From: an uncultured bacterium | GTDB lineage: Bacteria > Omnitrophota > Omnitrophia > Omnitrophales > Aquincolibacteriaceae | Assembly: GCA_964385615.1 (NCBI GenBank) | Contig: CAYLPP010000003.1 | Location: 203,288 to 267,287 of the forward strand | DNA length: 64,000 nt | Reading direction: 5' to 3' | Shown here: piece after piece, positions 1,826-39,224 of the stretch | Numbering within the stretch: the first letter of the stretch is position 1 | Layout of the letters: the number at the start of each line of letters is the position of its first letter | Notes under the pieces: generated by a model | What the model saw: the letters and a program-made list of their open reading frames with translations, nothing else | What the model was told of the DNA's origin: nothing | Database searches by the model: none | Program-made: the position numbers and the translations under genes

Positions 1826-1827
1826 TT

Positions 1828-2325: not shown

Positions 2326-3602
2326 TTTAAAACCTCCATAGCTCTACGGCCGATATCACGGCGGTAAAAACTGCCCTCGAATTGAATGTGAGCAATTTGC
2401 GAATAAGCCCGGTCGTGAGCGGCTTTCAGATTTTCTCCCAAAACCGTCACCACCAAAACCCGCCCGCCCGAAGTGATCACTTCGTTACGTTCATTTTTAG
2501 AAGTTCCTGAGTGAAACACAAAAACATCTTCCTGACGCGCCACAGTGTCAATCCCCTGAATCGGAAAACCCTTGTGATAAAAACCCGGGTAACCGCCGGA
2601 AGCAATCACAATGCCCATGCAAGCTTTGTCATGCCACTCCAGTTTTTCAGTGGAAAGCGAACCATTGGCGATCTCAGCAAGAATCGGAAGGATATCGGAT
2701 TTCATGCGCGGTAAAATAACCTGGGCTTCAGGATCACCAAAACGGCAATTGTATTCCAGAAGCATGGGGCCGTTTTTAGTCAGCATGATACCGGCATACA
2801 AAATCCCTTTATACGGCGTGCCTTCAGCCGCCAAGCCTTTAACCATAGGTCGAATCGCGATATCGATAATTTCATTGAACTTTTCTTCAGAAACAAACGG
2901 ACACGGAGAATAAGCACCCATCCCGCCGGTGTTGGGGCCTTTGTCGTAATCATAAGCGCGTTTGTGATCCTGCGCGCTGGCCAGCGGAATAATTTTTTCA
3001 CCGTCACTGAGCGCCAGAATGGAAACCTCTTCACCTTCCAGCTTTTTCTCAACGACGACTCTTTTGCCCGCGTCGCCGAAAACACCTTCCGCCATCATGC
3101 GCGTCAGAGCGGCAACCGCGTCCTGCGTGTTGTCGCAAATCACGACGCCTTTGCCTGCGGCGAGGCCGTCAGCCTTGATGACGACCGGCATTTCCGTTTC
3201 AATGCAGAAATGTTTGGCTTCATTCACATTGGAGAAAACTTCATAATCGGCCGTGGGAATGCCGAACTTGGACATCTGGTCTTTGGCAAAAGCTTTACTG
3301 CCTTCCAGCATGGCCGTATGTTTGGAGGGACCAAAAATTTTCAAGCCGGCCGCTTCGAAAGTATCCACAATACCGGCAACCAGCGGCGCTTCAGGACCAA
3401 CCACCGTCAAATCAATAGCTTCGCGCTGGGCAAATTCCAGGAGTCCCTGAATATTGTCAGCTTCAATAGGCTGGCATTCGGCGATTTGAGAAATTCCCGC
3501 GTTTCCGGGGGCCGCGTAAAGTTTGGTTAGAAGAGGGCTTTGTGAAATTTTCCAGGCCAATGCGTGTTCCCTGCCGCCCGAACCGACGATTAAAACCTTC
3601 AT
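2322..3602 (-). CDS. purD: phosphoribosylamine--glycine ligase
   Basis: 426 aa with MKVLIVGSGGREHALAWK and an ATP-grasp core (KADGLAAGKGV, GPNTGGMGAYSP). Confidence 0.9.
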   Translation of the reverse strand: MKVLIVGSGGREHALAWKISQSPLLTKLYAAPGNAGISQIAECQPIEADNIQGLLEFAQREAIDLTVVGPEAPLVAGIVDTFEAAGLKIFGPSKHTAMLEGSKAFAKDQMSKFGIPTADYEVFSNVNEAKHFCIETEMPVVIKADGLAAGKGVVICDNTQDAVAALTRMMAEGVFGDAGKRVVVEKKLEGEEVSILALSDGEKIIPLASAQDHKRAYDYDKGPNTGGMGAYSPCPFVSEEKFNEIIDIAIRPMVKGLAAEGTPYKGILYAGIMLTKNGPMLLEYNCRFGDPEAQVILPRMKSDILPILAEIANGSLSTEKLEWHDKACMGIVIASGGYPGFYHKGFPIQGIDTVARQEDVFVFHSGTSKNERNEVITSGGRVLVVTVLGENLKAAHDRAYSQIAHIQFEGSFYRRDIGRRAMEVLK

Positions 3603-4615
3603 ACCACCTCCACCGAACGCCGACGGGTAATTTCACCAATCACCCACGACTGAAGTTTAAATTTTTCAAGCGTTTTAAGGGCCTGCTTCGAATACATGGC
3701 GTCGACAATCACCACCATGCCGATTCCCATATTAAAGGTCCGCGACATTTCGAAGTCAGATATGTTACCAGATTTCTGAACCGTGCGGAAGATAGCCGGA
3801 GCCGTCCATTCATCACGCACCAGTGTGGCGCCATAAGGTTCAGGAATGACACGAGGCAGGTTATCAATGAAACCGCCTCCGGTGATATTGACAATCCCCT
3901 TCACAGGGAGGGTCTTCATCAATGCCAGCACGGGTTTTACATAAATACGGGTAGGAGTCAGAAGCTCACGGCCGATACGGCCTTTAAGCTCCTTATTTGA
4001 GAAGATCTTCCTTAATAGAGAGTAGCCGTTGGAATGGAAGCCTGAGGAGGCAATCCCGATAATGGCGTCTCCAGGCTTAATGGTCCGTCCGGAAATAACT
4101 TTCGTGCGGTCAACCACCCCGACTGAAAAACCGGCGATATCATACTGGGCATCTCCCTTCGCGCCTGATTCATAGAAGCCAGGCATAATGGCCGTTTCCC
4201 CGCCGGTCAGCGCGCAGCCAGCCTGACGGCAGCCGTCCACCACGCCTTTCAGGACCTGCTTGATGACTTTGGGTTCAAAGCGGCCGGAGGCAAAGTAATC
4301 GAGAAAGAAAATAGGCTGAGCGCCGCAGGTAATGATGTCATTGACGCACATGGCGACCAGATCAACGCCAATGGTGTCATGTTTTCCCTGAAGGCGCGCG
4401 ATTTCAAGCTTGGTGCCGACACCGTCAGTGGAAGAAACAAGGAGAGGATCTTTAACGCCTGATTTTTTGGGATCAAAGAGGGCGGCAAAACCGGTGGCAC
4501 TGCCCAGCACGCCGGGCACGTGCGTAGAACGGATCAGTTTGGTAATTTCACGGTTATAACCCGGATCGCCTTTTAAGTGAGGCACTCCGGCTTTTTCATA
4601 AGTCCAGTTCTTCAT
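3599..4615 (-). CDS. purM: phosphoribosylformylglycinamidine cyclo-ligase (AIR synthetase)
   Basis: MKNWTYEKAGV... aligns with the PurM N-terminus (YKNAGVDI). The ORF-track start at 4624 is a TTG; the ATG at 4615 is preferred. PurM/PurL-type AIRS domains are present. Confidence 0.9.
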   Translation of the reverse strand: MKNWTYEKAGVPHLKGDPGYNREITKLIRSTHVPGVLGSATGFAALFDPKKSGVKDPLLVSSTDGVGTKLEIARLQGKHDTIGVDLVAMCVNDIITCGAQPIFFLDYFASGRFEPKVIKQVLKGVVDGCRQAGCALTGGETAIMPGFYESGAKGDAQYDIAGFSVGVVDRTKVISGRTIKPGDAIIGIASSGFHSNGYSLLRKIFSNKELKGRIGRELLTPTRIYVKPVLALMKTLPVKGIVNITGGGFIDNLPRVIPEPYGATLVRDEWTAPAIFRTVQKSGNISDFEMSRTFNMGIGMVVIVDAMYSKQALKTLEKFKLQSWVIGEITRRRSVEVV

Positions 4616-4693
4616 ACCCCTCAAAAATTTAGAGGGGCAGTATACTCTATTCCCTATACGAATTGCCAGACAAAAGAAAGAGAAGGCTGGAGA

Positions 4694-7600
4694 TCAGGAA
4701 GGATTCACGCGGTTGCGGTCGCGAACGTCGTTCACAAGCCGTTCAAGAGTGGTCGGCCCCGAAATGTTTTCCGCAACTTGGGCGCTTGGGCCATTCACCG
4801 AACCGTTATTCGAGAGATTCATGACGCTCTCTGAGGACTGTGACTTTTCAGTTCTGATTTCCGCGGGCGGATAGTAAGGCGTTCCGGCAAAAACCGATGC
4901 TTGATAACCCATCACACTATTGATCTCGGCCGCGTTCCCGGAAATCACTGGAACCGTATTGAAAAGCATGGGGTTTGAAAAATCCGGCATCGCGGAGAAG
5001 ACCGTACGGGTCAGATTCTGATTCCATTCGAAACCGCCGCCAAAAACCGCGGAAGGTTCCCCGCCGGACACGGTCAAAACTTCAGGAACAGTCAAGGTGA
5101 TTGGACTTTCGAGCGCCGGTGAAGCGGCCGCTTTAGGTGTAACAGAAACCGTTTGAACCGGCGCGGAAACGGGCGTAACCGAAACCGTTCGAACCGGAGC
5201 CGGAGGAAGCGGTAAATTTTTAACTTCAATGGATCTCACGGGCGCCGTTGAATTAGTATTTAAAAACACTGTTTGCTGAATCACGACATTTTCAAAACTA
5301 ACCGTTTCAACATAAACCGGAGCCGTTGGAGCTGTCACGCTCGCCGCCGCGCTGATCTTCGCACTTCCGCTGTAGGCGGCGGTCTCTGAGTTGTAACCGA
5401 CGCGAATGGAACCATTCGTAATCACGCCGCTGAGCAATTCAATATTCACGAACGAAATATTCTGCAGCTGCTCCTCTGTCAACTTATCGCTGATAAGGCC
5501 CAGAACAAAATCATCCAGAGGCGGCTGCATCAGAATCGAATGGCGCAGGTTTCCCGACTGTCCGGTTTTCTTAACCAGATAGTTACCGTTAAGGCCGGCC
5601 ATTGGCGCGGAACCCCATTCATAACCAAAAGCGCTTGGATTCGCGAAAATCGCAGCAATATCAATCGGAAGTGATTCGACCGGCACAGGCTGGCCAAAAG
5701 TTCCCGTATTCCAGTTTCCTCCAATATATGAAATCGATGCGGTGACAACTTGCGAACCCGGAATCGACGTGGGCGCCTGGTTCGGGCTCAGCGGCGCACC
5801 CGGATTAGGATTAGGATTGGGATTCGGCTGAGGCTGCGGTCCCGGATTAGGCGCCGGGTTTGGTTGCGGCGCCGGATTAGGATTTGGATTCGGCTGAGGC
5901 GCAGGATTCGGGTTCGGATTCGCAGGAGGCTGATCCGGGCCCGGAGCCGGAACTGGCGCTGACGGAAACACAGAAGCCACAATAGTACTTAAACTCACAC
6001 GAAGCGTGTAGTGATACATGTGGCCGTGCTGTTCAGTCGACCACACATTCAAGTTCGTGAAATTAATCCCGAAAGTATCGCCGCTGCGGTCAACGTCATT
6101 AATGGAAAGAACACCGTCCGCGTTATCACCGAGTGAAACAACATAATTTTTCATCAGGGTCATGATGTCGAGTTCTATAACGGTGTTGTTGTCTTTGATC
6201 AAAAGACCTCTGCCGGAATTTCCCGCCCCAATAATCAAAGTGTCATTCCCCACCGCGAAGGCTTCTCCGGAATTGGTGTAAGTGCCGGGAATACTGCGGA
6301 TCCCGCCCGAAACCAAATTAATGAGCTTAAGATTGCCGCCGCTATTGCCGGTCGACACCACCAGCTCATCACGGCCTTGCGTCATAAGGATGCCGCTCAT
6401 ACGGCCGGTCTCATATTCCGTAAGTCCCTGACTCGTCAGTGAAGTCCCGCTTAAATTGAATGTCTGAACAACGACTTTTTCCTCATCCGCGGACGTTCCG
6501 ACCAAATAAAGCTTGTTGCCCGAAACATGCATTGGTTTGTAAACGCCGCCGCCGATATGAAAATTTCCGATCGAGCTGCTGGCCGCGAGACCGCCGTTAC
6601 CGAAACGGTCAAACACGTAAATTTTCGGATCGCTCTCATAGGAGTTTGTATAAAGTAATAAATTTCCGTTATCATCGACATCGACCGATTTAAAAGCGTA
6701 ATAATCCGGGTCATTGATGTTTAATTCGAATATTTTCTTCTCCATGGTTACGGTGTTATAAACATAGCCGAACCGGTTACCGATGGTTCCCGCCATGAAC
6801 CGTTTATTCGCGGAATTCGCGGACCGAACATTGCCGTAATCTCCGAAATTATGCCCCGCGAGCGGTTCACCCAGGAGCACGACCAAATCTGACTCTGAAA
6901 TAATGATCTCCGTGAATTCCCCGGTTGACTGATTAAATTTCCCGAACAGCGGACGGTCATCTTCTTCAATATCACGATGGAAAAGCGTGTTCCCGGCACC
7001 GCCCGAGGACGGAGAGGGCCAGTAAGCAATCATGTATTGTTCGTTTGGACCCGCGGAAATATTCATGCCGTCGGGAATAACGTTCGGATCGCGCACAATC
7101 CGCGTTGAGGGAATAAATGGAGGCTCCTGCGGCTCCGGAGCTTCAGGAAGTTCGGGTTCCTGCGGATTCTGAGGGCCTGTGGGCGGAATCGGATTGCCCG
7201 TACTTTCTCCGAGAATAAAAAATCCGGTTATCGGAGTATCGAGAGCCTGCCCCGCGTAACTCACATGGATAACATAATCAAAGCGCGTTCCGGCCGGAGC
7301 AGACCCGGGAATTGAAAAATCAAAACTCGAAATCTGACCATCCTGGGTAATCCAGGCCGTACCGCTTCTGCTGGTGTACGGATAAAAATAGTAAGGATGC
7401 TGTACATCCACCTGTAAAGAAATCGCCGCGGGCGGTGTCATATTTTCAGGCCATTCATTCCCAATCTCATCCGTCCTTATCACAATCGTCGCGGACCCCG
7501 GCGTTTCAGGAATTCCCGGAGGCGCCCCGGGGGTTCCGGCCTGGGAAGTAATTCCAAGTACATTCGCCCGGGCATACTGTTGTCCCGGCTGAGGACCTTC

Positions 7601-10600
7601 AGGGCCCCAATTCGAAACAGGTCCCACGGGATTCTCAGGCCCCTGCGGCGGAGCCGGAGGCACCGGATTTTCAGGTCCTTGCCCAGGACCCGGAGCCGGA
7701 GGATTCTGATTTTGTCCGTAGATAAAGATTCCCGTTCTCGGAGAAGCAACCGGAATCCCGTTTTGGGTCATGGTGATTTCATAATAAAGCTGTTCCCCGG
7801 CCTGAATTCCGTTGGGATAAAGATAAGCTGTCATACTCACATGGCCCGGAGCAAATTGTTCCTGTCCCTGCCAGCCGAACGCGAAACCGTTTTCATCGTG
7901 GTATTTCACAACGACATGCGCTTCAACCGGCGGATTATAATTTTGAAGACCTGAAAGTTCTGTGAAATCAAAATCAAAAGTAGCGGATCCCGCCAATTGT
8001 GAAATCACGGTGGACTGAACACTTACATCCCCGATCATGGTCTGAGGCTGGCCCGGATTTTGCGTAGGCGGCGTTGGTGTCGGACTCAGAGTAAATCCCT
8101 GACCGACGACAAAATCACCTTCGATCGTGTTTGCGATGTTTTCGCCGTTCTGCGTGATGGTAATCGTAAAATGCAGGGTCGTTCCATTTCCATAAATATT
8201 CCAAAAAGTCGTCGGCACTATGACCTGCCCGGAACCGGAAATATACGCGGCGCCGCCGCCGGCCGGTGTGGTCATATTATTACCTTCCTCATGAACGATA
8301 TTGATGGAGATAATCCCCTGCGGAGAAAGATTCTCAAACGTTGATCCAGCCGCAGGAGCGAGCGTCAACTCAAAGTTCGCGGTTCCCGGATTTGGGAATT
8401 GAGCCGATGACTGAATAATGGACAGCGTCGCCATGCCCTGAACCGGCTGACCATTCCCCGGATTCGGGTTCGGGTTTGGATTTGGGTTCGGATTTGGATT
8501 CGGCTGAGGCGCAGGATTCGGGTTCGGATTTGGTAACGGACCGTCGCCCTGCGGAAGCATTCCAACTGTCATCTTCCCGCTCAAGGTGAAACCGCTTTGC
8601 ATTTCGAGTGCGACATAAGAAATATCTTCAATCGCCACATCCGGCAAATTCGCTCGAATAAAATCAACAACGATCCGATCAAGCGGCTGGCCGGGAATCG
8701 TCAAAATGGAATAATAACTATTTCCCGACTCCACCCGCTGTTTCACAAGATACGTTCCGTTATATCCGGCGCTCGGAGCCGAAGTGAGAGAGTATCCGAA
8801 CTGCCCCGGATTTGCGTAAATGGCGGCAAGGTCCGGGCTCACGGCATCAAATCTGCTGAATCCGCCGGACGTGATCTGATATTCAGAACCCACTTGGACG
8901 AACTTCGCAGCTGCCGTTACGGTATTTGAAATGTCATAGCCGCGCAAAGGATTCTGCGGGGGCCACGGATCAGAGCCCTTATCGCCGGGATTAATATCAT
9001 CACCATTATGATCTATACCATCGTCAGTGCCATCGCCGTCGCCATCAACCATGCCGCAATTAATAGAACCGGTTTCCAGCCAGCTTAAAAACGGACAGGC
9101 CGGGCTCGCAGCGGAAGAGCTTAAGCGGCCGCTGTTGTTTCCATTGTCCCAGAAGAATAGAATTCCTTCACTGGTTTTGAGGAGATCAACACCTTCAATC
9201 GTATAAGGCGAGCTCGCCATGCCGATGGCCGCAAAGAAATTATCCATCCCGCGGCTCATTCCCTGCACAATATTTGAATAATATTTTCCTTCAATGAACG
9301 GGCCGCCGCGGCCCGTGAGCGACGCAACCGTCACGCTCGCATGCTGGAACACGCCTGAGTCGTTATACTGCTGCGAGAAAAGAAGGGTCATGCTCCAATC
9401 CCCCAAACCACCACTGCCTTTGAGAGTGAGAGCGGTATTGTGATCATGAACCTGAACGCCGGCAGGAGTATTGTTATCCACGGCAAATTCGAACCGCGAA
9501 ATCATCGCACCTGTGCCGAAATTTACTTCAGCATAGCTGTCTCCTGTAACAACAATGCTGCTGCCGCCCTGAGGAATTTCCACATGGTCAAGCGTGCTGA
9601 AAGAATATTTCTTAGTTCCATCCGGTTCAGGAGTGTCCAGCTGAACGCTTTGACTTTTTATGACATGCAGCTGATCATCGTAGGTCACAATGTTGAGATA
9701 GCTGTTCATCTCTAGATTGCCGGGCTGGGCCGGTTTTTCAATAATCCCATAGACTACCAATCCGCTGGAGGTGCGAGTCATGCGGGCATCGCCGGCGCTC
9801 AAACCGGGATTATTCAGATAATCCATGTTCAACATCTTGAAACTGGTTTGATTAACGATGTGCCCCGTGCTGTCAACCCTCATGAGGAAAAACTCGCCGT
9901 CACCGGCATTTTCAGGCTTGGTGCCTTTGCCGTTAAAGCCAAAAACCGTAAAGGTCCCGTCACTATTCGGCTCAACGTTATAAACCGTTTTCTTGAAACC
10001 GTTCTTGTCCTTCGCATTAAAATTGGGAATAATGATTTCCGTGCGGTCGACGACATTGCGTTTGACTTTGTCGCCGTTTGCAAGCGTGATCTCCACAGCG
10101 CGCGGAATTGAATACTTATAGAATTTAGCGGGTTCATTATCAGGGAAATCGCCGCCGCCCTTTGTGAAAATAACTCCGCCCGGTCCGACACTTCCAACTA
10201 AAACGCGGCCGTAGCAATCTTCCCGCAGCCCGCAAAGCTCTCCCCCTTTACGAGGCGTCTCTTCGTAAGACCCATCGGAAGTGTTTCTGACCCATACGGG
10301 AATCGCTTCTCCATCCGGTTTCGCGTAAACCGCGCCGTTCTGGAATGCAAAGGAAAGGGCTTGGCCTTTTTTGACCACCGTCCCATTGTCGTTCAAGTAC
10401 AATTCCGCGCCGCCGGCATCCTGCAAATTACCAAGCAAAGTGCCCAAACCAATCTGGTTCGTATAGATTTTTCCACCGGAAGCTGATTTAACGAACGGCA
10501 TGGTTTGGTCGCCGCCCGTTTCATCCCCGCCTCCGTCGCCCGGATCAATATCGCCTCCGCCAGGGCCCTTGCCGTCGTCATATTTCTTAATGAGTTCCAC

Positions 10601-13600
10601 CAATTTACCGGCAGTAAATGAAGCTTGGCTGTTCGCATAATTAAACCAGAGATCCAATTTCGGATCATCCAGCGGAATCAGCGCCCGGTAACCATAAGAA
10701 ATCGTAATGGTGCCGCCCGGATTGACGGCCATTCCAAAAACCCTCAGCTTGTCATCTTTTCGCGCGATACCATCGGCCTGGAGAAAATGCATAATGGTGG
10801 TCGCGGAAGCGTCGAAAACGGCTTTGCCATCTTTATCCAGAATGGTCAGCCACGGGTCATTAAGATCACCGTTGGCAACCGTAAGAAGAATCGTGTTGCC
10901 GGTGGCCGCATCATAAATCGCGGAGTCGCGGTCATAGTAACCGGTAGCTCCATAGAGATCACCCTTATTGATGACGGTGCCGCTCAAGGCATCGATCAAA
11001 TAATATTTACTCACATTGTTCATGGTGCCCGATCCAAAAATAATGATTTTGCTAGGATCGCCTTCAATGAACTGGACGGTTCCAACCTGGTCAATCATTT
11101 TTGGATCGTCCGCATATTCTTGCAATGAAATTCCGCTGCCCGAAGGGACCGCGGTGAAGCGCAGGATTTCCATATTCGGCTCAGTGGTGCTGTAGCGGAG
11201 AGGAACCACCATAATCACAACGTCCCTGCCGCTCGCATCACGAGTAAGATTAATCCCGGCATTGTTGAGATTACCGTTGAAATTCGGAGCATCGATATCC
11301 GTTCCGCCGATCGAAACTCCGTTTTTATAAATGCGGATGCCGGGGCGAAGCGCCATCGGATTGACATTTTTATTCACAGAAGATCCGGCAAGGAAAACGG
11401 CCCCATCCTTGCCCACTTTGACCGATTCAGGCACAAAGTAGTAGGTGCCTGAAGAAGGAGGAAGATGCGTTGTAAGGGTTTGATGAGTCGCCCGGTTATA
11501 GGTATAAAGATAATTATCATCAGGGAAATTCCCGCTCCCCGTGATAAAGCAAGCGACGACCGCATCGGAAGCACCGCAGGTAATTTTGTGGTCCCAAAAC
11601 TTGTCAGGGAAATCAACGATTTTTTCAACCAGACCGGTTGCCGTGTTGGTAATCACAGCCACCTGATTATGAGTGGAATAACCCGGATTAAGCGGCGCTT
11701 CAATTCTGTTTTGTTCGCCCGCGGTTAAAATCAAATTATTCCCCAAATCGATCGTCATGCCTTTCATGGCCGACTGGGATTCAGGTCCAAAAGTGACCTG
11801 GCCGTCCATGCGAAGGTCGCGGACAATTCTCCGGGCATTGGGGTCTTGAAGATTGTCGGTCCCCATCACCACATATTCCAGGGGCTGGCTCGCGTTAAAA
11901 CCGTCCATGTGGATATCAACATTAGTCTGGCCTTCGACCACATCCTTGAAACCTTTCGAAATCACGCTTCCGTTCATATCCTGAACGAACCAGTAAATTT
12001 TCCCGCCCTGCAGGACGTCAGCGATCTGAAAATTCGCTTCATAGCTGGTTTGAGTAAAAGATAATGTCTTGTTAAAACCCTGCACGACGGCTTTGTAATT
12101 CTGTTCGTCTTTGAGAGTCCGGAAATCGCCTTTGTATTCCTGGATTTCAACGCGCTGCGGAGGCTGGCTCTGATCAAGCGCGAAAACATCAAAGTTGTAC
12201 AGGGTATCCGCTTTAAGAGGCGGCACAGCATTCGTCGTCAAGCGCACGCTGCCGTCCTCCGTGATAAGAGGATCCGTAGCAACCGTCGTCAGCAATTGAT
12301 TGGTGACCGGATCGCGCACTTCCAAAACAACTTTTGTCGGCTGATTAACCCCGGTGACGCTGAATGCGAATGTCGCATTATGAGCGGTTGGGATAATATT
12401 CATATTTTTGAAAGCTACCGTGCGGCCGCCGTTATCGTCGGCTTCGGTCCTGAACTTATTCCGGTACTCCTGCACGTCAACGCGCTCGCCGTTTTCATTA
12501 ACGGCGGTAAGAACAAAGACGTATTCTTTGTCAGGCGTAAGAACCGTGTTCGAAGGAAGGCTGAAAGTTTCGTCCTGCATGAAATCCATTTCGATATGGT
12601 CCACAGGCAGGTTAGTGACAGGATCGTAAATATCAACGTTCACTTTGGTTTTACCCGTCACACCTGAAACTCCGAATTTAAAATCAGCATTATGCTGATG
12701 CGGCGTAACTCTTGGCGACTGGAAAGTAACGGTACGGTCTTGATTTTCATTAGGAATCGTGAAAAATCCAATTTGGCTGGGCCCAGGAGGAATCGGAGTC
12801 AGACTGGAGCCGGCATAGCTCAGGCTGATCTCATAAGCAAATTGGTTCTGCCCCGGCAATAAGTAGGGATCGTAGACAAAATCAATCGCGTCGGGAATAT
12901 CAATGACTACATGCCTCGTTTCACCGGATCCGGTTACCCAAGCTGATCCCGCAACCACCGTTGAATAACCGCCAGGACGGCGTACCACCACAAGAGCCTT
13001 TACCGCGTTGGGCGGAGGGCCGGGAGGCCATGCGCCTTCCGTTATTTTTGCGTCAAAGTTGAAAGTGACATGTCCGACATGAGGGTCTACTGTTTTCCCG
13101 CTAACTTCGCCCTTATGCGGAACGCCGGGATCTTCACCGCCGCTGTCCCGAACCGTAAACTGGTTACCCACGATATGATCCAGCGGCTGGCCGTCCGGAT
13201 CATATAAATCAATATAGAAATCAAAAGTGTCGCCGGCCTGAATATCCGCAGAATCAATCGTAATGACAACATGCCCGGAAGCTGTCATGGTTGCGGTTCC
13301 ATCAAAAGATTGACCGGTCACCGTGTTCGTAATTCTCGTCTTCACGTTTGGACTCGCCAATGACGGCGGCCAGTCTCCGGTCAGAATCACATCAGCTTCC
13401 AGCACCGCATGGCCGGGAGTTCCGCTGCCGGCCGCATTCCCGCTTTGACTGCGGTCAAAATTTCCTTTGGGCGGTGTGGTTTCCCCTCCGCCGCTTCCCG
13501 GCGCGGTCCGAAAACTCTCACCTCCAAACGCGTCTTCCGTCTGCCCGTTTTCAACAATATTCCACGAGATTTTTTTATCAACCGATTGAGGAAGGCCCGT

Positions 13601-16600
13601 GAAAGTTCCTACCCAGGTGTCATTTCCCAGATAAGTCATCATGACATCTTTGATGTCGTAAACAGAATCAACAATCGCGAAAAACAGTTTTTCACCGGGA
13701 TTCAATCCCTGCATTTTGACGGTAACCGTAATATTGGCTGTCTGGGGTCCTGTAACACGGCTCGCGAAAGTAAGATTGCTTTGAGTCACAAACCTCGGAG
13801 GCCATCCCATTTGATAAGTTTTAGCTTCCGGAACTTCCTTCACCAGATCTGTCGCCAGATATGGCTGCCTGACTGCCGGCTCCGCGCCGCCCGTAGAAAT
13901 ATAATTCCTGTCCGGCGGAAACTGGAGTGTCGTTCCATCCTGCAGTTTCGCGACGACAAAAGTATGAAGAAGAGCATTGGCGGGAAGCGAACCCAGCGCC
14001 GCGGACCAGTGATTAGCCGGATTCTGATTTAATGTAACTTTGGTCCAGGAGGCAGGATCCGTATTAGGATCTCCGTAATAAAGATCGGCCCCGACAGGCA
14101 TCGCCATAGGTGAACCCGGATCACCTAATGAAGCAATTGACAAAATGGATTTAAAATCAATCTCCCAGTTACTTCCATCGAAAGCAGGATCTCCAGTCTC
14201 TAACCGGATTTTTCCATTATTGAAATCAAACGTTTGTCCGGAATTCGCGTAGTGATCGGCATTCCATTTATACTTCACGCCTGGAATAATCGGATCAATG
14301 ACCACCGGCGGGTTGGCAGGAGGATCGGATGGATTCACACCTTCCACAGATCCTTTACCGACAACCATTCCACCGCCCTTCGAACCTCGGTTCCAAGTCA
14401 TAAAAACATAGCTGACATCATTTAAATTCGCGACGGGTCCGACAATTTGCGACATTGTAGAAGGAAGCGGATCCCCCGGAATTGTGAACAGAGAAATTTG
14501 CGCACCGTTGGTTTTGATAAACCCGCGCATCCCGGCAAGCGGCACGGGAAGTGACGCGGTATACTGATAACCGTACTTTTCAGGATTCGCGTAGAGCTCC
14601 AGAACGCTTTGCCCCTGATCAAAGTAAGAAATAAATGTTTTTTCACCCTGAGCGTTTAAATCGTCAACTGAAGTGAATCCAACGGGAACAATTCCGCCAT
14701 TGAAAGTAAAATCTGCCGAAGCAATCTGAGTTCCTGAAACGTTATAGCTGTACTGTGTCCCGGGGCCGGGATCAATCGGCGGAGCAAAACCTTCAATGTA
14801 AAATTGTCCTTCCTGACGGTCGGCAATCTCCGCACCCGCGTACTGCAGTCTCACACGGAAATTCCACTGCGTCCCCGCCACGAAATCAATCTGATCGTTA
14901 ATCGTAATCGTCACATGACCGGGCTGCGGTGACCATGCCGTTCCCGCTACAGTCGCCCATCCCTGTCCGGGTCTCATCACTTCGATAATTACTTCCGGCG
15001 AATTCGGAGGCACTCCGTTGCCGGGCCATGAATATCCCGCGTCCGGATAAACATCCAGATTAAACGTCGCTTTTCCGACTTCTCCCGCCGCATGAACATT
15101 CTGAATCACTCCGCGGGGCTGCTGCGCGGGCGGCTGATCGGGGTTATCAGGATTATTCGGGTTGTCCGGAGGAAGCCGGAATGAATGAATGCTGGGAGCA
15201 AAAGACGTTTGAGCGCCGCCAAGCCCTGCCGACGTGGCTTGAGTGTAATCAATCACAAAGTTAAAATCATAGACATCACCCTCAGCGAGCGCTTCCAAAT
15301 CGCCGATCGCGACCCAAAAATCTCCGGCGCCTGGTCCCGCAGTCATCAGCACGTCGCGCGCGTGCGCGGGGCCGGCAACACCATACGTGCTGCGGGGGTA
15401 ATACCGCACCAGAACCTGCTCATTAACCGTAACACCGGAATTAAAATGGACTTTGATCAACTCCGTTTTATCATTCAGAGCGGAGACTCGAAGATTTGAA
15501 TAAGAAACTTCCGCGTAAGGCTGAGGCGTTGAAACCGTATGAACAGCATTGTCGGTATAGGTGTAGTCTGGAATCCCCGTCATGTTCTGCACCGGGTTCT
15601 GCACCGTTCCCGCAGTCGTGAAATAATCCAGATTCGGGCGGAAGGCAAGCCGGTTATCTCCGCTGTTGATCACGAAACGAAGGAAATACTGCTGACCCTG
15701 CTGAAGCCCCTGAACATTCGCGGAGCAGTTACCATTGCTGCAGGTCATGCGTGCCGTAAAAACCGAGGTCCCCTCACCAGGCGCGGCCCAGTACTCAACG
15801 TCCACCGGCCCATTCGGAAGAGTGGCACCGAAAGTCGTGCTGAAATTCACGCTCAGCGTGGCGGAATTCGCCTGAGTTGTATATTGAGTACTGCCAATAT
15901 GAAAGTGCGCGGAAGCGGGCGTGATGAAATAATATTCCTGCCCTTCCCGGCTGTTGTAAGTGTTACTGCTCGAACGGTAAGCCTGTCCGGGTGTTACTGG
16001 ATTTCCGCCTTCTGAGCTCCGCGTTGTAAAACGGTCGATTCCCGGAATAAAGCTGGTGGAAATCGGGATAAAGTTCGGATCGTTCGGATCAAGCGGGCGA
16101 TTGCGACCTCCATATAAAATGGAAACATTGGTGCGGTAGGTCGTATTCGGATTCAAACCGCTCAGATCGACCCGGCATTCCACATTCCCGTCGGCCTGTG
16201 TGGAACAGGACATCAGGGCGATACTGATATTCGGATTGGCGGCGGAAGCGTCCCAATACTGAAGCGAGACAGTGTTACCCGCAGCAAGGCGGACACCACT
16301 GTTAAAGAGCGCGCTGATGGTAGCGGTGTTGGCACCCAGCGACTCCACATTCAGTGCTTTTACGCGAATCGTCAAATTCGGATTATTTCCAACAGGAATC
16401 GTTTGCCAGTTGATCGTGGGCGGATTATTCGGTTCATCAGGGCCGGTCGGTTCCGTCGGTTCAACAGGGATCACGGGGGCAGGCGCGTTAAAACCAATCG
16501 CGGCGTAGAAATCTTCAAGTTTCATATCGACAAACGCGGCCGCGTAGCTGGAAGCCGCTGAAGCCACTGAGAAAGAAATACGGCCTTTGCCGACCGTGAA

Positions 16601-18544
16601 GCTCCAGATATAGGTTCGGCCAAAAGCCGGAGCGCCGATTCTGACTAGAAACGCGTTCATGTCATACGGCCCGCTGACAACATCGCCGTTGGCGTCATAA
16701 ATATAAAGTTCATTGATATTGGTATAACCGCTGTTAATACTGCCTCCCTCTTTGTGCCAAAGCGTCAGCTGGAGGTTGCGCAGTTCGTCACTGTCGGTGT
16801 GCGTAGGCACGGCACTGTGCATCGGGTATAACTGCGGGATGTTCGTGTCTTCAATAACATTACCGGTCAACGCATCAATAACTTGCCGTCCGCCGGCGTA
16901 GAAGCGCACGGCACGGGTATCGCCCGGAATGAGCTCCGTGTAACTGAGCGGAATGCTGCTGTTGGCGACCGGAGCCGAATAAATCCTCCCCATCGCCACG
17001 ATGCCGCCCGCGGTTTTTTCGATCCGCTGGAACTGCGCGTCCTGATTGTAGAGAATCAGTGTGTCCCCATCATACATCGCCAGATCGGTCAAAGAGGGAT
17101 CAATCAGTACGGCGGCGCCGATCGTTTCACCACTAAAAGAAAAACGCTCCACAACCAGCTCATTCCCCCCTCCCCACCAGCTGCTGCTCTGACGTTGTGC
17201 CAGAGCGTACGTATTGCCTTCATTATCCACCGCGACTTTCCCGGTAAACTGAATAAAAAGTTCGTTGCCGTTTGCGTCAACCTCATACCCCGGGAACGGC
17301 CGAATGCTCATGTCTCCAGTCACACTGTTGTAGACATAAAGTTCTGACCCGTAAGGACCGCCTTCAACTACAAAAGCCATGAAGCGCCCGTCCGGTGAAA
17401 CTGTGCCGTACGGAACCATATAATGAGCCATTGAAGGATTATCGCCTGCGTGGAAATCGGAAACTCCTTCAAAAAGAATACGGTCAGTATTACCGTCAGG
17501 CTGATAGATCACCGCGTAGGCGTGCTCACGGCCATTCACGTACGTGCGGCCGACCATAAATGTGTTGCCATTTTTCATGCGGAAAGTACCGCCGTTCCAG
17601 GAAATCCGGACACCGGGAGTCACATAAAGAGGATCAGGGTTTTCAAGGCCTATGGACGGGCCGACATTCACAACCCGTAATCCCGTTTCATCATCTCCCC
17701 ATCCGCCCGGAGGAGGTTCAAGAGGAGGTGTCCCAAGTCCCCCATTGGTAATAGGCCCGCCGCCGCTTCCCGTCACAATTCCATTACCGCGCCCCACGCC
17801 GTAACCGCCGCCGTTCGAACCATCATGAGAAACAAGATAAAGGTAACCGGCCTCCCCTTTGGAAATCGGTTCTTGAGAATTATTGTTAAAGAAAGCGGAA
17901 ACTTTGTTCCACATGGAATCCGTTACACCATTTGCGACATCAAGAGAAAGAAAACGATGAGTGCCTCCCTCATTTTTGTAATAGCCTGTCATTCCGGCAA
18001 AGGGCCCTGAAGCAACTAAAACATACTGATATCCGAACGATTCCGGATTGTTCAGAAGATTCCCGATTGAAGGGCCTCCGCTGATGTAGTTTTGAAAATT
18101 AGAATCGGCGGAGGAACCGCAATCCGCGGAGTATCCGGAAGGAACACTGTTGGATGAGTAGTCGCCCACGCAAATCTGACCGGGTTGAACTTGGGTGCAG
18201 TCTTGACCAAGACAATCGGTATTGTGGTCAGGTTCTCCGCTCGTCAAATCTGCTGAATTTGAATCTTCATTCGAAGTTAAAATACCGGTGTTGGTACCCG
18301 GTTCTTCAGGAGCTGCGGGTGAAAGAGGATTTTCCTGATTAAAATTTTGCCCCGGATCAACGTAAGCAGGCTCAGGTTCTTCCTGTTGATCGGTCGCGGG
18401 AACACCGGGATATTCCACGGCATCCGTTTGAGTGGGCGTTATATCCGAACCCGCAAGAACAGGAACCTGCCCGCTCGTGACAGAAAAGAAAAAGAAAGGA
18501 ACCAAAAGAATCCAGGAGAGTGTCTTTTGGCTGCCTTTTATCAT
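4694..18544 (-). CDS. giant secreted repeat-rich surface protein, about 4,616 aa (beta-propeller-like region, Ig/FN3-like tandem modules, Asp-Gly calcium-binding runs, Pro-Asn linkers)
   Basis: An uninterrupted 13.85-kb ORF. The ATG at 18544 has AGGAG 9 nt upstream, and the N-terminus MIKGSQKTLSWILLVPFFFFSVTSG is a signal peptide. There are at least five copies of a 95-aa module, four copies of an 'ANPxxFGY..AGxNGxYLVK' module, DGDGDGTDDGIDHNGDD, and (PN)n tracts. Confidence 0.8.
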   Translation of the reverse strand: MIKGSQKTLSWILLVPFFFFSVTSGQVPVLAGSDITPTQTDAVEYPGVPATDQQEEPEPAYVDPGQNFNQENPLSPAAPEEPGTNTGILTSNEDSNSADLTSGEPDHNTDCLGQDCTQVQPGQICVGDYSSNSVPSGYSADCGSSADSNFQNYISGGPSIGNLLNNPESFGYQYVLVASGPFAGMTGYYKNEGGTHRFLSLDVANGVTDSMWNKVSAFFNNNSQEPISKGEAGYLYLVSHDGSNGGGYGVGRGNGIVTGSGGGPITNGGLGTPPLEPPPGGWGDDETGLRVVNVGPSIGLENPDPLYVTPGVRISWNGGTFRMKNGNTFMVGRTYVNGREHAYAVIYQPDGNTDRILFEGVSDFHAGDNPSMAHYMVPYGTVSPDGRFMAFVVEGGPYGSELYVYNSVTGDMSIRPFPGYEVDANGNELFIQFTGKVAVDNEGNTYALAQRQSSSWWGGGNELVVERFSFSGETIGAAVLIDPSLTDLAMYDGDTLILYNQDAQFQRIEKTAGGIVAMGRIYSAPVANSSIPLSYTELIPGDTRAVRFYAGGRQVIDALTGNVIEDTNIPQLYPMHSAVPTHTDSDELRNLQLTLWHKEGGSINSGYTNINELYIYDANGDVVSGPYDMNAFLVRIGAPAFGRTYIWSFTVGKGRISFSVASAASSYAAAFVDMKLEDFYAAIGFNAPAPVIPVEPTEPTGPDEPNNPPTINWQTIPVGNNPNLTIRVKALNVESLGANTATISALFNSGVRLAAGNTVSLQYWDASAANPNISIALMSCSTQADGNVECRVDLSGLNPNTTYRTNVSILYGGRNRPLDPNDPNFIPISTSFIPGIDRFTTRSSEGGNPVTPGQAYRSSSNTYNSREGQEYYFITPASAHFHIGSTQYTTQANSATLSVNFSTTFGATLPNGPVDVEYWAAPGEGTSVFTARMTCSNGNCSANVQGLQQGQQYFLRFVINSGDNRLAFRPNLDYFTTAGTVQNPVQNMTGIPDYTYTDNAVHTVSTPQPYAEVSYSNLRVSALNDKTELIKVHFNSGVTVNEQVLVRYYPRSTYGVAGPAHARDVLMTAGPGAGDFWVAIGDLEALAEGDVYDFNFVIDYTQATSAGLGGAQTSFAPSIHSFRLPPDNPNNPDNPDQPPAQQPRGVIQNVHAAGEVGKATFNLDVYPDAGYSWPGNGVPPNSPEVIIEVMRPGQGWATVAGTAWSPQPGHVTITINDQIDFVAGTQWNFRVRLQYAGAEIADRQEGQFYIEGFAPPIDPGPGTQYSYNVSGTQIASADFTFNGGIVPVGFTSVDDLNAQGEKTFISYFDQGQSVLELYANPEKYGYQYTASLPVPLAGMRGFIKTNGAQISLFTIPGDPLPSTMSQIVGPVANLNDVSYVFMTWNRGSKGGGMVVGKGSVEGVNPSDPPANPPVVIDPIIPGVKYKWNADHYANSGQTFDFNNGKIRLETGDPAFDGSNWEIDFKSILSIASLGDPGSPMAMPVGADLYYGDPNTDPASWTKVTLNQNPANHWSAALGSLPANALLHTFVVAKLQDGTTLQFPPDRNYISTGGAEPAVRQPYLATDLVKEVPEAKTYQMGWPPRFVTQSNLTFASRVTGPQTANITVTVKMQGLNPGEKLFFAIVDSVYDIKDVMMTYLGNDTWVGTFTGLPQSVDKKISWNIVENGQTEDAFGGESFRTAPGSGGGETTPPKGNFDRSQSGNAAGSGTPGHAVLEADVILTGDWPPSLASPNVKTRITNTVTGQSFDGTATMTASGHVVITIDSADIQAGDTFDFYIDLYDPDGQPLDHIVGNQFTVRDSGGEDPGVPHKGEVSGKTVDPHVGHVTFNFDAKITEGAWPPGPPPNAVKALVVVRRPGGYSTVVAGSAWVTGSGETRHVVIDIPDAIDFVYDPYLLPGQNQFAYEISLSYAGSSLTPIPPGPSQIGFFTIPNENQDRTVTFQSPRVTPHQHNADFKFGVSGVTGKTKVNVDIYDPVTNLPVDHIEMDFMQDETFSLPSNTVLTPDKEYVFVLTAVNENGERVDVQEYRNKFRTEADDNGGRTVAFKNMNIIPTAHNATFAFSVTGVNQPTKVVLEVRDPVTNQLLTTVATDPLITEDGSVRLTTNAVPPLKADTLYNFDVFALDQSQPPQRVEIQEYKGDFRTLKDEQNYKAVVQGFNKTLSFTQTSYEANFQIADVLQGGKIYWFVQDMNGSVISKGFKDVVEGQTNVDIHMDGFNASQPLEYVVMGTDNLQDPNARRIVRDLRMDGQVTFGPESQSAMKGMTIDLGNNLILTAGEQNRIEAPLNPGYSTHNQVAVITNTATGLVEKIVDFPDKFWDHKITCGASDAVVACFITGSGNFPDDNYLYTYNRATHQTLTTHLPPSSGTYYFVPESVKVGKDGAVFLAGSSVNKNVNPMALRPGIRIYKNGVSIGGTDIDAPNFNGNLNNAGINLTRDASGRDVVIMVVPLRYSTTEPNMEILRFTAVPSGSGISLQEYADDPKMIDQVGTVQFIEGDPSKIIIFGSGTMNNVSKYYLIDALSGTVINKGDLYGATGYYDRDSAIYDAATGNTILLTVANGDLNDPWLTILDKDGKAVFDASATTIMHFLQADGIARKDDKLRVFGMAVNPGGTITISYGYRALIPLDDPKLDLWFNYANSQASFTAGKLVELIKKYDDGKGPGGGDIDPGDGGGDETGGDQTMPFVKSASGGKIYTNQIGLGTLLGNLQDAGGAELYLNDNGTVVKKGQALSFAFQNGAVYAKPDGEAIPVWVRNTSDGSYEETPRKGGELCGLREDCYGRVLVGSVGPGGVIFTKGGGDFPDNEPAKFYKYSIPRAVEITLANGDKVKRNVVDRTEIIIPNFNAKDKNGFKKTVYNVEPNSDGTFTVFGFNGKGTKPENAGDGEFFLMRVDSTGHIVNQTSFKMLNMDYLNNPGLSAGDARMTRTSSGLVVYGIIEKPAQPGNLEMNSYLNIVTYDDQLHVIKSQSVQLDTPEPDGTKKYSFSTLDHVEIPQGGSSIVVTGDSYAEVNFGTGAMISRFEFAVDNNTPAGVQVHDHNTALTLKGSGGLGDWSMTLLFSQQYNDSGVFQHASVTVASLTGRGGPFIEGKYYSNIVQGMSRGMDNFFAAIGMASSPYTIEGVDLLKTSEGILFFWDNGNNSGRLSSSAASPACPFLSWLETGSINCGMVDGDGDGTDDGIDHNGDDINPGDKGSDPWPPQNPLRGYDISNTVTAAAKFVQVGSEYQITSGGFSRFDAVSPDLAAIYANPGQFGYSLTSAPSAGYNGTYLVKQRVESGNSYYSILTIPGQPLDRIVVDFIRANLPDVAIEDISYVALEMQSGFTLSGKMTVGMLPQGDGPLPNPNPNPAPQPNPNPNPNPNPNPNPGNGQPVQGMATLSIIQSSAQFPNPGTANFELTLAPAAGSTFENLSPQGIISINIVHEEGNNMTTPAGGGAAYISGSGQVIVPTTFWNIYGNGTTLHFTITITQNGENIANTIEGDFVVGQGFTLSPTPTPPTQNPGQPQTMIGDVSVQSTVISQLAGSATFDFDFTELSGLQNYNPPVEAHVVVKYHDENGFAFGWQGQEQFAPGHVSMTAYLYPNGIQAGEQLYYEITMTQNGIPVASPRTGIFIYGQNQNPPAPGPGQGPENPVPPAPPQGPENPVGPVSNWGPEGPQPGQQYARANVLGITSQAGTPGAPPGIPETPGSATIVIRTDEIGNEWPENMTPPAAISLQVDVQHPYYFYPYTSRSGTAWITQDGQISSFDFSIPGSAPAGTRFDYVIHVSYAGQALDTPITGFFILGESTGNPIPPTGPQNPQEPELPEAPEPQEPPFIPSTRIVRDPNVIPDGMNISAGPNEQYMIAYWPSPSSGGAGNTLFHRDIEEDDRPLFGKFNQSTGEFTEIIISESDLVVLLGEPLAGHNFGDYGNVRSANSANKRFMAGTIGNRFGYVYNTVTMEKKIFELNINDPDYYAFKSVDVDDNGNLLLYTNSYESDPKIYVFDRFGNGGLAASSSIGNFHIGGGVYKPMHVSGNKLYLVGTSADEEKVVVQTFNLSGTSLTSQGLTEYETGRMSGILMTQGRDELVVSTGNSGGNLKLINLVSGGIRSIPGTYTNSGEAFAVGNDTLIIGAGNSGRGLLIKDNNTVIELDIMTLMKNYVVSLGDNADGVLSINDVDRSGDTFGINFTNLNVWSTEQHGHMYHYTLRVSLSTIVASVFPSAPVPAPGPDQPPANPNPNPAPQPNPNPNPAPQPNPAPNPGPQPQPNPNPNPNPGAPLSPNQAPTSIPGSQVVTASISYIGGNWNTGTFGQPVPVESLPIDIAAIFANPSAFGYEWGSAPMAGLNGNYLVKKTGQSGNLRHSILMQPPLDDFVLGLISDKLTEEQLQNISFVNIELLSGVITNGSIRVGYNSETAAYSGSAKISAAASVTAPTAPVYVETVSFENVVIQQTVFLNTNSTAPVRSIEVKNLPLPPAPVRTVSVTPVSAPVQTVSVTPKAAASPALESPITLTVPEVLTVSGGEPSAVFGGGFEWNQNLTRTVFSAMPDFSNPMLFNTVPVISGNAAEINSVMGYQASVFAGTPYYPPAEIRTEKSQSSESVMNLSNNGSVNGPSAQVAENISGPTTLERLVNDVRDRNRVNPS

Positions 18545-39206: not shown

Positions 39207-39224
39207 CTGTTTTCCCCTAACGGG

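Follow-up and report, generated by a model that had tools for sequence, protein, structure and literature searches.

The window, that is the whole 64-kb stretch of DNA analysed here, stems from a Candidatus Omnitrophota bacterium whose PurF shares 87% identity with the nearest counterparts among Omnitrophota MAGs. Two giant genes, g1 and g2, sit between purF and purM, with purM beginning about 80 nt past the g1 stop codon. In 17 related genomes purF directly adjoins purM, and in the five closest relatives a g2-like gene comes next after purF. The g2 product (4,285 aa) carries faint methyltransferase and ATP-grasp signals, all below threshold, and bears no similarity to that of g1. The pair is an insertion into the purine operon that is specific to this lineage. 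The two junctions scanned (g2/g1 and g1/purM) show no terminator-like site, so that g1 may share a transcript with the purine genes, the promoter/terminator scan as such being uninformative. Type II secretion or pilus genes were not found within the window, nor were glycoside hydrolase genes near g1.

The g1 reading frame is intact across 13.8 kb and specifies a product of 4,616 aa. An AGGAG lies 9 nt before its ATG (18544), and the frame stays open further, up to a TTG at 18727. Synonymous codon usage of g1 correlates with that of the housekeeping genes in the window (r = 0.90). A separate short contig (L001) carries the last 70 aa of g1 and purM-purD at 100% identity, which confirms the 3' junction between g1 and purM independently. 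The internal repeats have diverged yet keep their conserved motifs, which implies selection. We conclude that g1 is a genuine gene encoding a probably exported protein built from repeats. Its features are listed in Table 1.

Table 1. Features of g1, from the N- to the C-terminus of its product (E, leave-one-out profile E value)
Feature	Residues (aa)	Window position	Strand	Remarks
g1, complete gene	1-4616	4694..18544	minus	4,616 codons plus stop
Signal-type N-terminus	1-31	18452..18544	minus	sole hydrophobic segment of g1
Acidic low-complexity stretch	32-116	18197..18451	minus	net charge -18, no K or R
Module A copy 1	117-297	17654..18196	minus	NNPESFGY...AGMTGYY; E 7e-5
R1, beta-rich region	300-690	16475..17647	minus	place of claimed propeller
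Three FN3/purple-acid-phosphatase-N-like (FN3/PAP-N-like) modules	716-853, 870-990, 1000-1125	15170..16399	minus	
Module B copy 1	1145-1264	14753..15112	minus	E 1e-15
Module A copy 2	1267-1423	14276..14746	minus	ANPEKYGY...AGMRG; E 3e-11
Region resembling, by eye, two more sandwich-type modules	1430-1690	13475..14257	minus	no Pfam match
Module B copies 2 and 3	1699-1816, 1812-1933	12746..13450	minus	E 2e-6, 2e-13
Module C (FN3-like), three in tandem	1927-2033, 2031-2143, 2141-2250	11795..12766	minus	
R2	2255-2660	10565..11782	minus	one Cys pair; nothing above threshold in Pfam
R3	2690-3165	9050..10477	minus	two Cys pairs
Asp/Gly run DGDGDGTDDGIDHNGDDINPGDKGSD	3167-3192	8969..9046	minus	one DxDxDGxxDxxD calcium-loop consensus match
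Module A copy 3	3203-3345	8510..8938	minus	ANPGQFGY...SAPSAGYNGTYLVK
Module B copies 4-6	3375-3496, 3507-3623, 3674-3793	7166..8422	minus	Pro-rich linkers between
R4, beta-type region	3812-4196	5957..7111	minus	weak likeness to R1
Long Pro/Asn/Gln linker	4196-4258	5771..5959	minus	
Module A copy 4	4259-4400	5345..5770	minus	ANPSAFGY...SAPMAGLNGNYLVK; E 4e-10
Ser/Thr/Val/Pro/Ala-rich C-terminal tail	4401-4616	4697..5344	minus	

The signal peptide and the acidic, low-complexity N-terminus described in the initial annotation are both present as sequence features. The lone hydrophobic segment of g1 spans aa 12-30, preceded by K3 and K7; the hydrophobic core of the signal segment was placed at aa 9-22, and no lipobox cysteine accompanies it. 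Cleavage is possible after TSG25 or VLA31, or the N-terminus may serve as an uncleaved signal anchor instead of a cleavable signal peptide. All 14 cysteines fall into seven local pairs with a spacing of 5-17 aa, an arrangement matched by none of 200,000 random placements. The first of these pairs (C111/C116) closes the acidic stretch and the second (C125/C142) lies just within module A copy 1. Together with the signal segment and a net charge of -203 for the whole protein, this pairing points to an extracytoplasmic location for g1. In the C-terminal tail no hydrophobic anchor, LPXTG motif, PEP-CTERM-like end or RTX repeat was found, the last 192 aa have no Pfam match at E ≤ 10, and no outer-membrane secretion or anchoring signal is recognisable in g1.

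Most of the chain consists of modules in repeated families. The motif NPxx[FY]GY occurs four times in g1, against 0.008 occurrences expected. The four scattered copies of a 50-aa ANP..FGY motif noted earlier were thus all recovered, each within a larger module of about 140-150 aa (module A) whose conserved core reads NPxx[F/Y]GY...AGxxG. Each copy was retrieved in leave-one-out profile searches (E 7e-5 to 2e-13). Copy 1 is the most divergent and reads NNP where the others read ANP, and copies 3 and 4 share 54% identity over 63 aa (E 8e-15). An AlphaFold model of copy 3, for which the four paralogues served as input and whose confidence is moderate (pLDDT 71.1, pTM 0.66), comprises eight strands and three short helices; module A is accordingly predicted to be folded rather than disordered. 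No structural neighbour of this predicted alpha/beta domain was found. A match of module A to PDB entry 3e48 (E 4e-4, 23.7 bits) was treated as due to chance, and derivation of module A from module B was rejected (profile-profile probability 0.1%).

Of module B, for which at least five copies of 95 aa had been reported, there are six copies of about 115 aa, each recovered from the other five by profile at E values between 2e-6 and 1e-15. Copy 2 was absent from the seed set and was picked up by the profile. Likewise, the two modules described as FN3-like and ending in EYRNKFRT and EYKGDFRT do constitute a repeat (module C copies 1 and 2; 41% identity, E 7e-10), followed by a degenerate third copy. 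The FN3 label itself is borderline, Pfam scores being weak: fn3 (PF00041) sums to 27.5 bits over the whole of g1 against a cutoff of 25 that no single stretch reaches (24.5 bits for aa 730-1140, 19.9 bits for aa 1927-2260), and the module C profile reached titin and neogenin FN3 domains among PDB sequences only at E 0.03-1.1. A relationship between modules B and C was tried and rejected (profile-profile probability 0.1%). In the FN3/PAP-N-like stretch, Pur_ac_phosph_N reaches 28.1 bits and fn3 reaches 24.5 bits, each slightly under its cutoff. Internal similarity between aa 738-797 and aa 892-947 links the first two of its modules, which hold one Cys pair each, and the third (aa 1000-1125) was assigned by eye. 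No Big, cadherin or other bacterial Ig-like Pfam family was found in g1 at threshold, with DUF11 at E 0.035.

The Asp/Gly run had been described as a thrombospondin-type-3-like calcium-binding stretch. The run is real, and its DxDxDGxxDxxD consensus occurs once in g1 (aa 3167-3178) and in none of 2,000 shuffles. Membership of TSP3 did not hold, no Pfam family, TSP3 (PF02412, PF18884) included, matching the run at E ≤ 10 in segments of 51 aa and 206 aa. Pro-Asn linkers, also described earlier, were confirmed in an inventory of linkers, and DNA-level repetition in g1 is confined to them: 66 nt of the long linker at 5771..5959 match the linker at 8465-8530 with 85% identity. Since only the linkers repeat as DNA, the module duplications must be old.

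Four larger regions, R1-R4, together make up about 1,650 aa without family match. A beta-propeller with repeated strand motifs had been placed in R1, and this proposal was not confirmed, though R1 may still have a propeller fold: YxxDG occurs twice against 1.2 expected, VxxxDGxxxF does not occur, and PD40 (PF07676) yields a single repeat in R1 at 13.5 bits against a cutoff of 20.9. Internal self-similarity of R1 is modest (z = 3.2). A single-sequence AlphaFold model of aa 283-690 is all-beta in secondary structure, at a pLDDT (38.9) too low for fold assignment. R2 gives no internal repeat signal, and R4 contains one internal pair about 3 sd above shuffles. R1 and R4 align in BLAST at E 7e-4 across 75 aa; as a set, R1-R4 were rejected as paralogues of each other (hhalign probabilities ≤ 4.5%). 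The end of R3, NFFAAIGM, resembles that of R1, DFYAAIGF.

As far as sequence comparison can tell, g1 is without detectable homologue in any collection searched. In a collection of 5.8 billion clusters, aa 3160-3800, 2250-3165 and 117-1140 gave zero matches at E ≤ 1e-3, and the metagenome search suggested for the FGY module, run with module A copies 3 and 4, likewise returned none. Exhaustive phmmer comparison of aa 3160-4359 with 1.84 billion representatives produced 530 matches of up to 74 bits. Of the 150 matches listed, nearly all are best aligned on, or end in, either of two Pro/Asn linkers (aa 4196-4258 and aa 3324-3384), which account for all database matches of g1. Eleven proteins, among them those matched over the greatest length, were inspected; in all of them the similarity lies in Pro-rich linkers and does not extend to any module, and these matches were rejected as low-complexity. 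The six top-scoring proteins (P0001-P0006) are multi-domain, with repeated modules of about 130 aa between Pro-rich linkers.

Other searches gave the same picture. Exact-sequence look-up found no record of g1, PurM or PurF, and PurD on one 2.9-kb contig only. A genome-contig search with g1 had no match, and a metagenome scan with PurM, in which generic PurM motifs swamped the result, had a best match of 58% identity and no g1-like sequence. When 2 Mb of fetched loci were translated in six frames and searched with profiles of modules A, B and C, only g1 itself was recovered, and tblastn of g1 against plasmids and phages returned nothing. No family was found in PDB sequences (with g1 and the three profiles) or by NCBIfam on g1, and Pfam, applied to the whole of g1 and 15 segments, assigned nothing at threshold to single stretches. 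TSP3, RTX, SLH, autotransporter, TPS, dockerin and toxin domains were not detected in g1.

The initial annotation had characterised the product as a modular surface-type protein. This general reading stands, because of the signal segment, the 14 paired cysteines, the charge of -203, three families of repeated modules and the Pro-rich linkers; the specific domain labels lack support as assignments to families. The reading we favour, giving it an even chance, is that g1 encodes a surface or attachment protein of this uncultured Omnitrophota bacterium that is exported by Sec, extended in shape and multivalent. The signal-type segment would carry the chain over the inner membrane, and outside the cytoplasm the protein would fold, its seven Cys pairs presumably becoming disulfide-stapled loops. 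At least 12 of the modules of about 100-120 aa (six B, three C and three FN3/PAP-N-like), which recur as observed repeats and would adopt a sandwich fold and an extended shape, could form a long semi-flexible stalk on Pro/Asn-rich linkers. R1-R4, of about 400 aa each and of which R1 at least looks beta-rich, would together with the four module A copies provide multiple binding heads from end to end, with cations perhaps held at Asp-rich loops. The gene would have been inserted between purF and purM jointly with the unrelated, helical g2. By analogy, the protein would most likely serve in multivalent attachment, either to the surface of a partner or host cell or to a polymer, or in forming an extracellular coat, since such roles have been proposed for large, poorly annotated proteins of Omnitrophota. 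Neither Pfam nor NCBIfam places an adhesin, lectin, enzyme or anchor domain in g1 at threshold.

An envelope, coat or S-layer-type protein, in which the acidic chain self-assembles into a protective or spacing layer without binding a partner, would fit a product that is very acidic, Cys-poor, beta-rich and devoid of a membrane anchor. However, Pfam and NCBIfam reveal neither SLH domains nor others known to anchor S-layers, and long flexible Pro/Asn linkers joining many different modules are commoner in stalk-like adhesins than in lattice-forming subunits. Moreover, envelope proteins are expected to be conserved within a clade, whereas g1 has no homologue even among the available contigs of close relatives. 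We consider this explanation unlikely.

Improbable as well is a secreted enzyme scaffold, in which at least one of R1-R4 is a divergent hydrolase with polysaccharide, peptidoglycan or protein as its substrate, and the sandwich modules and module A bind substrate as in multi-domain carbohydrate-active enzymes. The unassigned length of R1-R4 leaves room for such a domain, the six best linker-matched proteins have a comparable multi-domain, repeat-bearing layout, and for Omnitrophota giants the leading hypothesis is degradation of prey cell walls (bioRxiv 10.1101/2023.11.21.568195). Yet no catalytic family was found for any R region at E ≤ 5 in Pfam or at E ≤ 1 in NCBIfam and PDB sequences, the neighbourhood lacks glycoside hydrolase genes, and the all-beta model of R1 has no recognisable fold.

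The initial annotation had placed g1 among adhesins, S-layer proteins or contact-dependent proteins, and the last of these finds no counterpart in its features. Proteins that deliver toxins or effectors on contact (CDI, Rhs or MARTX type) would share large size and an N-terminal signal segment with g1, but g1 has no TPS, RHS, RTX or PT-VENN domain and no toxin domain, it ends in a Ser/Thr/Val/Pro tail of low complexity, and it is followed by purM, with neither a partner transporter nor a small immunity-sized gene, making this very unlikely. That g1 is non-functional (an assembly chimera, a decaying or a fortuitous open reading frame) has next to no probability: its want of homologues in the collections searched and of an exact protein on record is outweighed by an open frame of 4,616 codons that is impossible by chance, by codon usage in agreement with the host, by conserved motifs held in diverged repeats, by ordered cysteine pairing and by the independently confirmed 3' junction.

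A bolder version of the attachment reading, which we regard as quite unlikely, would make module A a new ligand-binding fold and the gene pair a host-interaction cassette co-expressed with the purine operon. The g2 product would then be an inner-membrane-anchored helical protein with RSExR motifs, and g1 the exported stalk with four module A heads. If true, attachment to partner cells would be coupled to nucleotide supply in a host-dependent nanobacterium.

Returning to attachment as the preferred role, giant repetitive adhesins, both of the RTX type (LapA, MpIBP) and of the Ig-repeat type (SiiE, Ebh), use beta-sandwich repeats of about 100 aa as a stalk, with ligand-binding regions along it or at its end. 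With these g1 would have the general stalk design in common, and it shares the acidity and calcium-type loops. Unlike the RTX adhesins, it lacks the RTX nonapeptide (GGxGxDxUx), HemolysinCabind and a type I secretion C-terminus, and has a putative Sec-type N-terminal signal instead; moreover, its repeats are few and heterogeneous, whereas giant adhesins carry dozens of near-identical copies. From two-partner-secretion and autotransporter adhesins it differs in having no TPS domain or C-terminal beta-barrel (Pfam and NCBIfam, E ≤ 1). The secreted Pro/Thr-linker proteins P0001-P0006 resemble g1 in placing Pro-rich linkers between beta modules of about 100-150 aa, but the similarity is restricted to the low-complexity linkers and no g1 module aligns with any of theirs.

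Omnitrophota are widespread, ultra-small and probably host-dependent. Giant or large open reading frames are common among them, poorly conserved and with few annotated domains; adhesion or attack on prey surfaces has been proposed for their products (PMC10066038; bioRxiv 10.1101/2023.11.21.568195). Among catalogued proteins of 10 kAA or more, those with nothing but a signal peptide account for 9% and those lacking any InterPro hit for 15%, while 80% of the sequence clusters are singletons (bioRxiv 10.64898/2026.06.07.730766). Closest to g1 are the 'tandem-repeat scaffold' and 'signal-peptide-only' classes of Omnitrophota giants (Nielsen & Lui 2026, bioRxiv 10.64898/2026.06.07.730766) and the giant open reading frames of Seymour et al. 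(2023, PMC10066038). Like these, g1 comes from the same phylum, has a signal segment without further membrane helices, repeats modules whose DNA-level repeats have decayed, is a singleton with almost no Pfam content, and is assigned an attachment function by analogy. At 4.6 kAA, however, it falls under the 10-kAA and 20-kb thresholds of the catalogued giants, and its modules belong to no Pfam family, whereas the repeats of the catalogued scaffolds are TSP3, NHL, WD40, lectin-type or similar domains. In addition, it resides inside a purine operon without secretion or pilus genes nearby, while among 14 of the largest Omnitrophota giants 13 have such genes on their flanks (bioRxiv 10.64898/2026.06.07.730766; PMC10066038).

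Archaeovorin-type giants have many transmembrane helices and SecA DEAD-like, glycosyltransferase, methyltransferase and hydrolase domains, none of which is found in g1. The dockerin-type Omnitrophota giants (West-Roberts et al. 2023, bioRxiv 10.1101/2023.11.21.568195) differ from g1 in that the latter has no dockerin (PF00404), TSP3 Pfam match, SecA-like domain or membrane helices beyond the N-terminus, and a single TSP3-like consensus match; they are, as g1 would be, extracellular, are likewise repeat-rich and furnished with Asp-rich calcium-type loops, and share with g1 unannotated beta modules on linkers. Exported giants that are built from repeats and have no relatives are the norm in Omnitrophota already, and g1 overturns nothing in this respect. 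Among the large unannotated proteins of the phylum, it is a compact and tractable example: its module boundaries are clean, its modules can be expressed singly, module A combines a fold predicted in silico and a sharply conserved motif with the lack of any known relative, and the g2-g1 pair inside an otherwise conserved purine operon represents a dated lineage-specific acquisition with a testable co-expression hypothesis.

The giant gene g1 lies in an open frame that runs from 18727 to 4694 on the minus strand. Its ATG start is preceded by AGGAG nine bases upstream, and its synonymous codon usage matches that of the housekeeping genes (r = 0.90) more closely than does that of the neighbouring giant gene g2 (r = 0.68). 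The ORF is a genuine gene.

Coordinates of the features discussed (nt, position in the window; aa, residue of g1)
Feature	Position	Strand	Remark
g1	nt 4694-18544	minus	4,616 aa; ATG at 18544
g2	nt 18731-31588	minus	4,285 aa
Span of the operon comparison	nt 4624-31713		against related loci L002-L021, L063, L069, L073, L081
ORF between purC and purQ	nt 36106-36615	minus	169 aa, no Pfam match
tRNA-Glu(CTC) and tyrosine recombinase	nt 39129-40573	minus
MEKHLA-domain protein	nt 47224-47775	minus	183 aa, E 3e-50
ParA/MinD-type fusion protein	nt 59805-60917	minus
Hydrophobic segment	aa 12-30
Acidic stretch	aa 32-116
Module A copies	aa 117-297; 1267-1423; 3203-3345; 4259-4400		~140-150 aa
NPxx[F/Y]GY starts	aa 166; 1320; 3245; 4302
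Supposed propeller region R1	aa ~300-690
Three further modules	aa 716-1125
Module B copy recovered by profile	aa 1699-1816
EYRNKFRT; EYKGDFRT	aa 2026; aa 2136		module C
DGDGDG run	from aa 3167 (nt 9046 downward)
Pro/Asn runs	around aa 3338-3361 and 4209-4247
Repeated linker DNA	nt 5855-5920; 8465-8530		66 nt
Operon interruption in related locus L008	L008:6796-16776

Fragment-against-fragment BLAST of g1 yielded significant off-diagonal pairs for three repeat families, designated modules A, B and C. Module A is centred on the motif NPxxFGY, which occurs four times where 0.008 occurrences are expected by chance. Identity between copies 3 and 4 reaches 54% across 63 aa (E 8e-15), and in a leave-one-out analysis the profile of the other three recovers each copy (E 7e-5 to 2e-13). 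Module B comprises six copies by the same analysis (E 2e-6 to 1e-15), one of which was absent from the seed set. The initial annotation had proposed four ANP..FGY motifs, at least five copies of a 95-aa module (module B) and Pro-Asn linkers; all are borne out, the second with a higher count. It had also described two FN3-like modules. These form module C, a pair (41% identity, E 7e-10) that retains both expected motif ends and is followed by a third, degenerate tandem copy, but the FN3 membership score is borderline. Three more modules resemble FN3 or the N-terminal domain of purple acid phosphatase and score slightly below Pfam cutoffs. Profile-profile comparison linked module B neither to A nor to C.

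At the DNA level, the linkers alone are repeated. The two main linkers, 2.6 kb apart, share a stretch encoding Pro/Asn/Gln with 85% identity, which may reflect recent linker exchange or slippage. Since DNA-level repetition is confined to the linkers, the module duplications are old.

When modelled from an alignment of its four paralogues, module A has eight strands and three short helices (pLDDT 71.1, pTM 0.66), with the NPxxFGY segment within the best-predicted block (mean pLDDT 90). Disorder, which would speak against such modules, is therefore not predicted. Foldseek found no convincing neighbour of the model in the PDB (TM<=0.26) or among viral models (TM<=0.38); either the fold would be new or the model is imperfect.

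Four large regions of ~400 aa each (R1-R4) complete the picture. R1 had been described as beta-propeller-like, a label that found no confirmation: of the supposed strand motifs, YxxDG occurs 2 times (1.2 expected) and VxxxDGxxxF 0 times, neither being enriched, and the only hint of a propeller is a lone PD40 repeat, with 13.5 bits (cutoff 20.9). The single-sequence AlphaFold model of R1 (pLDDT 39) has all-beta secondary structure, with 25 strands and zero helix. Unbiased self-similarity is modest in R1 (z = 3.2), limited to a single good pair in R4 and absent from R2 and R3, and no kinship among the four regions was detectable except a single weak R1-R4 match. The run previously likened to thrombospondin type 3 is present, with one fit to DxDxDGxxDxxD, but matches zero Pfam families, TSP3 included, at E<=10.

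The neighbours of g1 are housekeeping genes on one shared strand, transcribed in the order purB, purC, purQ, purL, purF, g2, g1, purM, purD, purE and a Sua5-family gene. Scans of the g2/g1 and g1/purM junctions showed no terminator-like site. The ORF between purC and purQ occupies the expected place of the short purS. Immediately upstream of purB lies tRNA-Glu(CTC) and, 486 nt further, a 293-aa XerC/D-type tyrosine recombinase, which is probably the chromosomal Xer recombinase; a tRNA beside an integrase is also a signature of an integration site. Elsewhere in the window, a ParA/MinD-type P-loop ATPase is unusual in being fused, at its C-terminus, to a glycogen-binding module (AMPK1_CBM / CBM48), and a MEKHLA-domain protein stands alone. 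No secretion-system or pilus genes were found within the 64 kb.

The closest relatives of PurF come from Candidatus Omnitrophota MAGs (best 87% identity, about 20 others 72-82%). In 17 of these related loci purM-purD directly follow purF, and in the five closest (L002, L003, L005, L006, L073) the gene after purF shares 30-46% identity with the N-terminal ~600 aa of g2, each such gene being cut by the contig end, where coverage of the region stops. This gene order argues that the g2-g1 pair represents a lineage-specific insertion splitting the purF/purM junction. In L008 the operon is interrupted at the same junction by unrelated metabolic genes (transhydrogenase pntA/B, sodium:solute symporter, saccharopine dehydrogenase, Orn/DAP decarboxylase), after which comes a large ORF weakly similar to g2; this site may be one where rearrangement or insertion recurs.

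The g2 product has a helical, charged composition, one N-terminal hydrophobic segment and one Cys. RSExR, mostly as [A/S/R]RSE[L/V]R, occurs in it nine times (0.14 expected) at spacings of 234-845 aa, and the g2-like ORFs of L002 and L005 contain four and one, respectively. The motif has the look of conserved punctuation, or of a processing site, between blocks. Pfam signals, all faint and sub-threshold, were for methyltransferase, ATP-grasp, GGDEF and PI3/4-kinase.

In line with the signal-type, acidic N-terminus claimed for g1, there is just one hydrophobic segment in the entire protein, preceded by K3 and K7 and followed by a stretch of net charge -18 with zero Lys/Arg. All 14 cysteines fall into seven pairs spaced 5-17 residues apart, an arrangement matched by none of 200,000 random placements and the one that would be expected for disulfide-stapled loops of an exported protein. 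No C-terminal anchor, LPXTG motif, RTX repeat or beta-barrel translocator was found in g1. The chain would be exported via Sec and fold outside the cytoplasm, where at least 12 modules of ~100-120 aa, likely sandwich-type, on Pro/Asn linkers would build an extended stalk with R1-R4 and the four A modules spread along it as binding heads. Asp-rich loops and a net charge of -203 suggest cation binding. We infer a role in multivalent attachment or as an extracellular coat, as already put forward for the large proteins of Omnitrophota (PMC10066038; bioRxiv 10.1101/2023.11.21.568195).

The modularity, signal-type N-terminus and paired cysteines are seen in the sequence itself; the disulfides, the shape of the stalk, the binding and the biological role are inferred. 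The initial observation thus stands for the most part, and its surface-protein reading is plausible but unproven. Rival readings are an S-layer or coat protein and an enzyme scaffold whose hydrolase regions go unrecognised; a contact-dependent toxin is poorly supported. An artefact is effectively excluded; the C-terminus of g1 recurs, together with purM and purD and at 100% identity, on an independent contig of 2.9 kb (run SRR16481186).

Word-seeded searching of 5.8 billion protein clusters, done in three parts that together span 2,580 of the 4,616 g1 residues, returned zero matches. HMMER run exhaustively with aa 3160-4359 against 1.84 billion representatives gave linker matches alone: for nearly all of the 150 matches listed the best stretch lay on, or ended in, either Pro/Asn linker, and the 11 inspected were all unrelated proteins with Pro-rich linkers. 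No homologue of g1 was found in 185,579 species genomes, plasmids and phages, PDB sequences or NCBIfam, nor the module A pattern in JGI metagenome contigs; in 2 Mb of related loci the module profiles matched nothing outside g1. Such orphan status is typical of Omnitrophota.

As a Dockerin-type or Archaeovorin-type giant, an RTX adhesin, a TPS or autotransporter adhesin, or an SLH S-layer protein, g1 does not qualify. Closest in kind are exported Omnitrophota proteins of large size that are poorly conserved and for the most part lack annotation. Among proteins of at least 10 kAA catalogued in 2026, 9% belong to a signal-peptide-only class, 15% have no InterPro match, singletons make up 80% of sequence clusters and nucleotide repeats are mostly decayed (bioRxiv 10.64898/2026.06.07.730766). 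On a smaller scale g1 fits this description, but it differs from the catalogued Omnitrophota giants in lacking secretion or pilus neighbours, in repeat modules that lie outside every known family and in its location within a purine operon. Two things chiefly make it interesting: module A, which is new, and the insertion that splits this operon.
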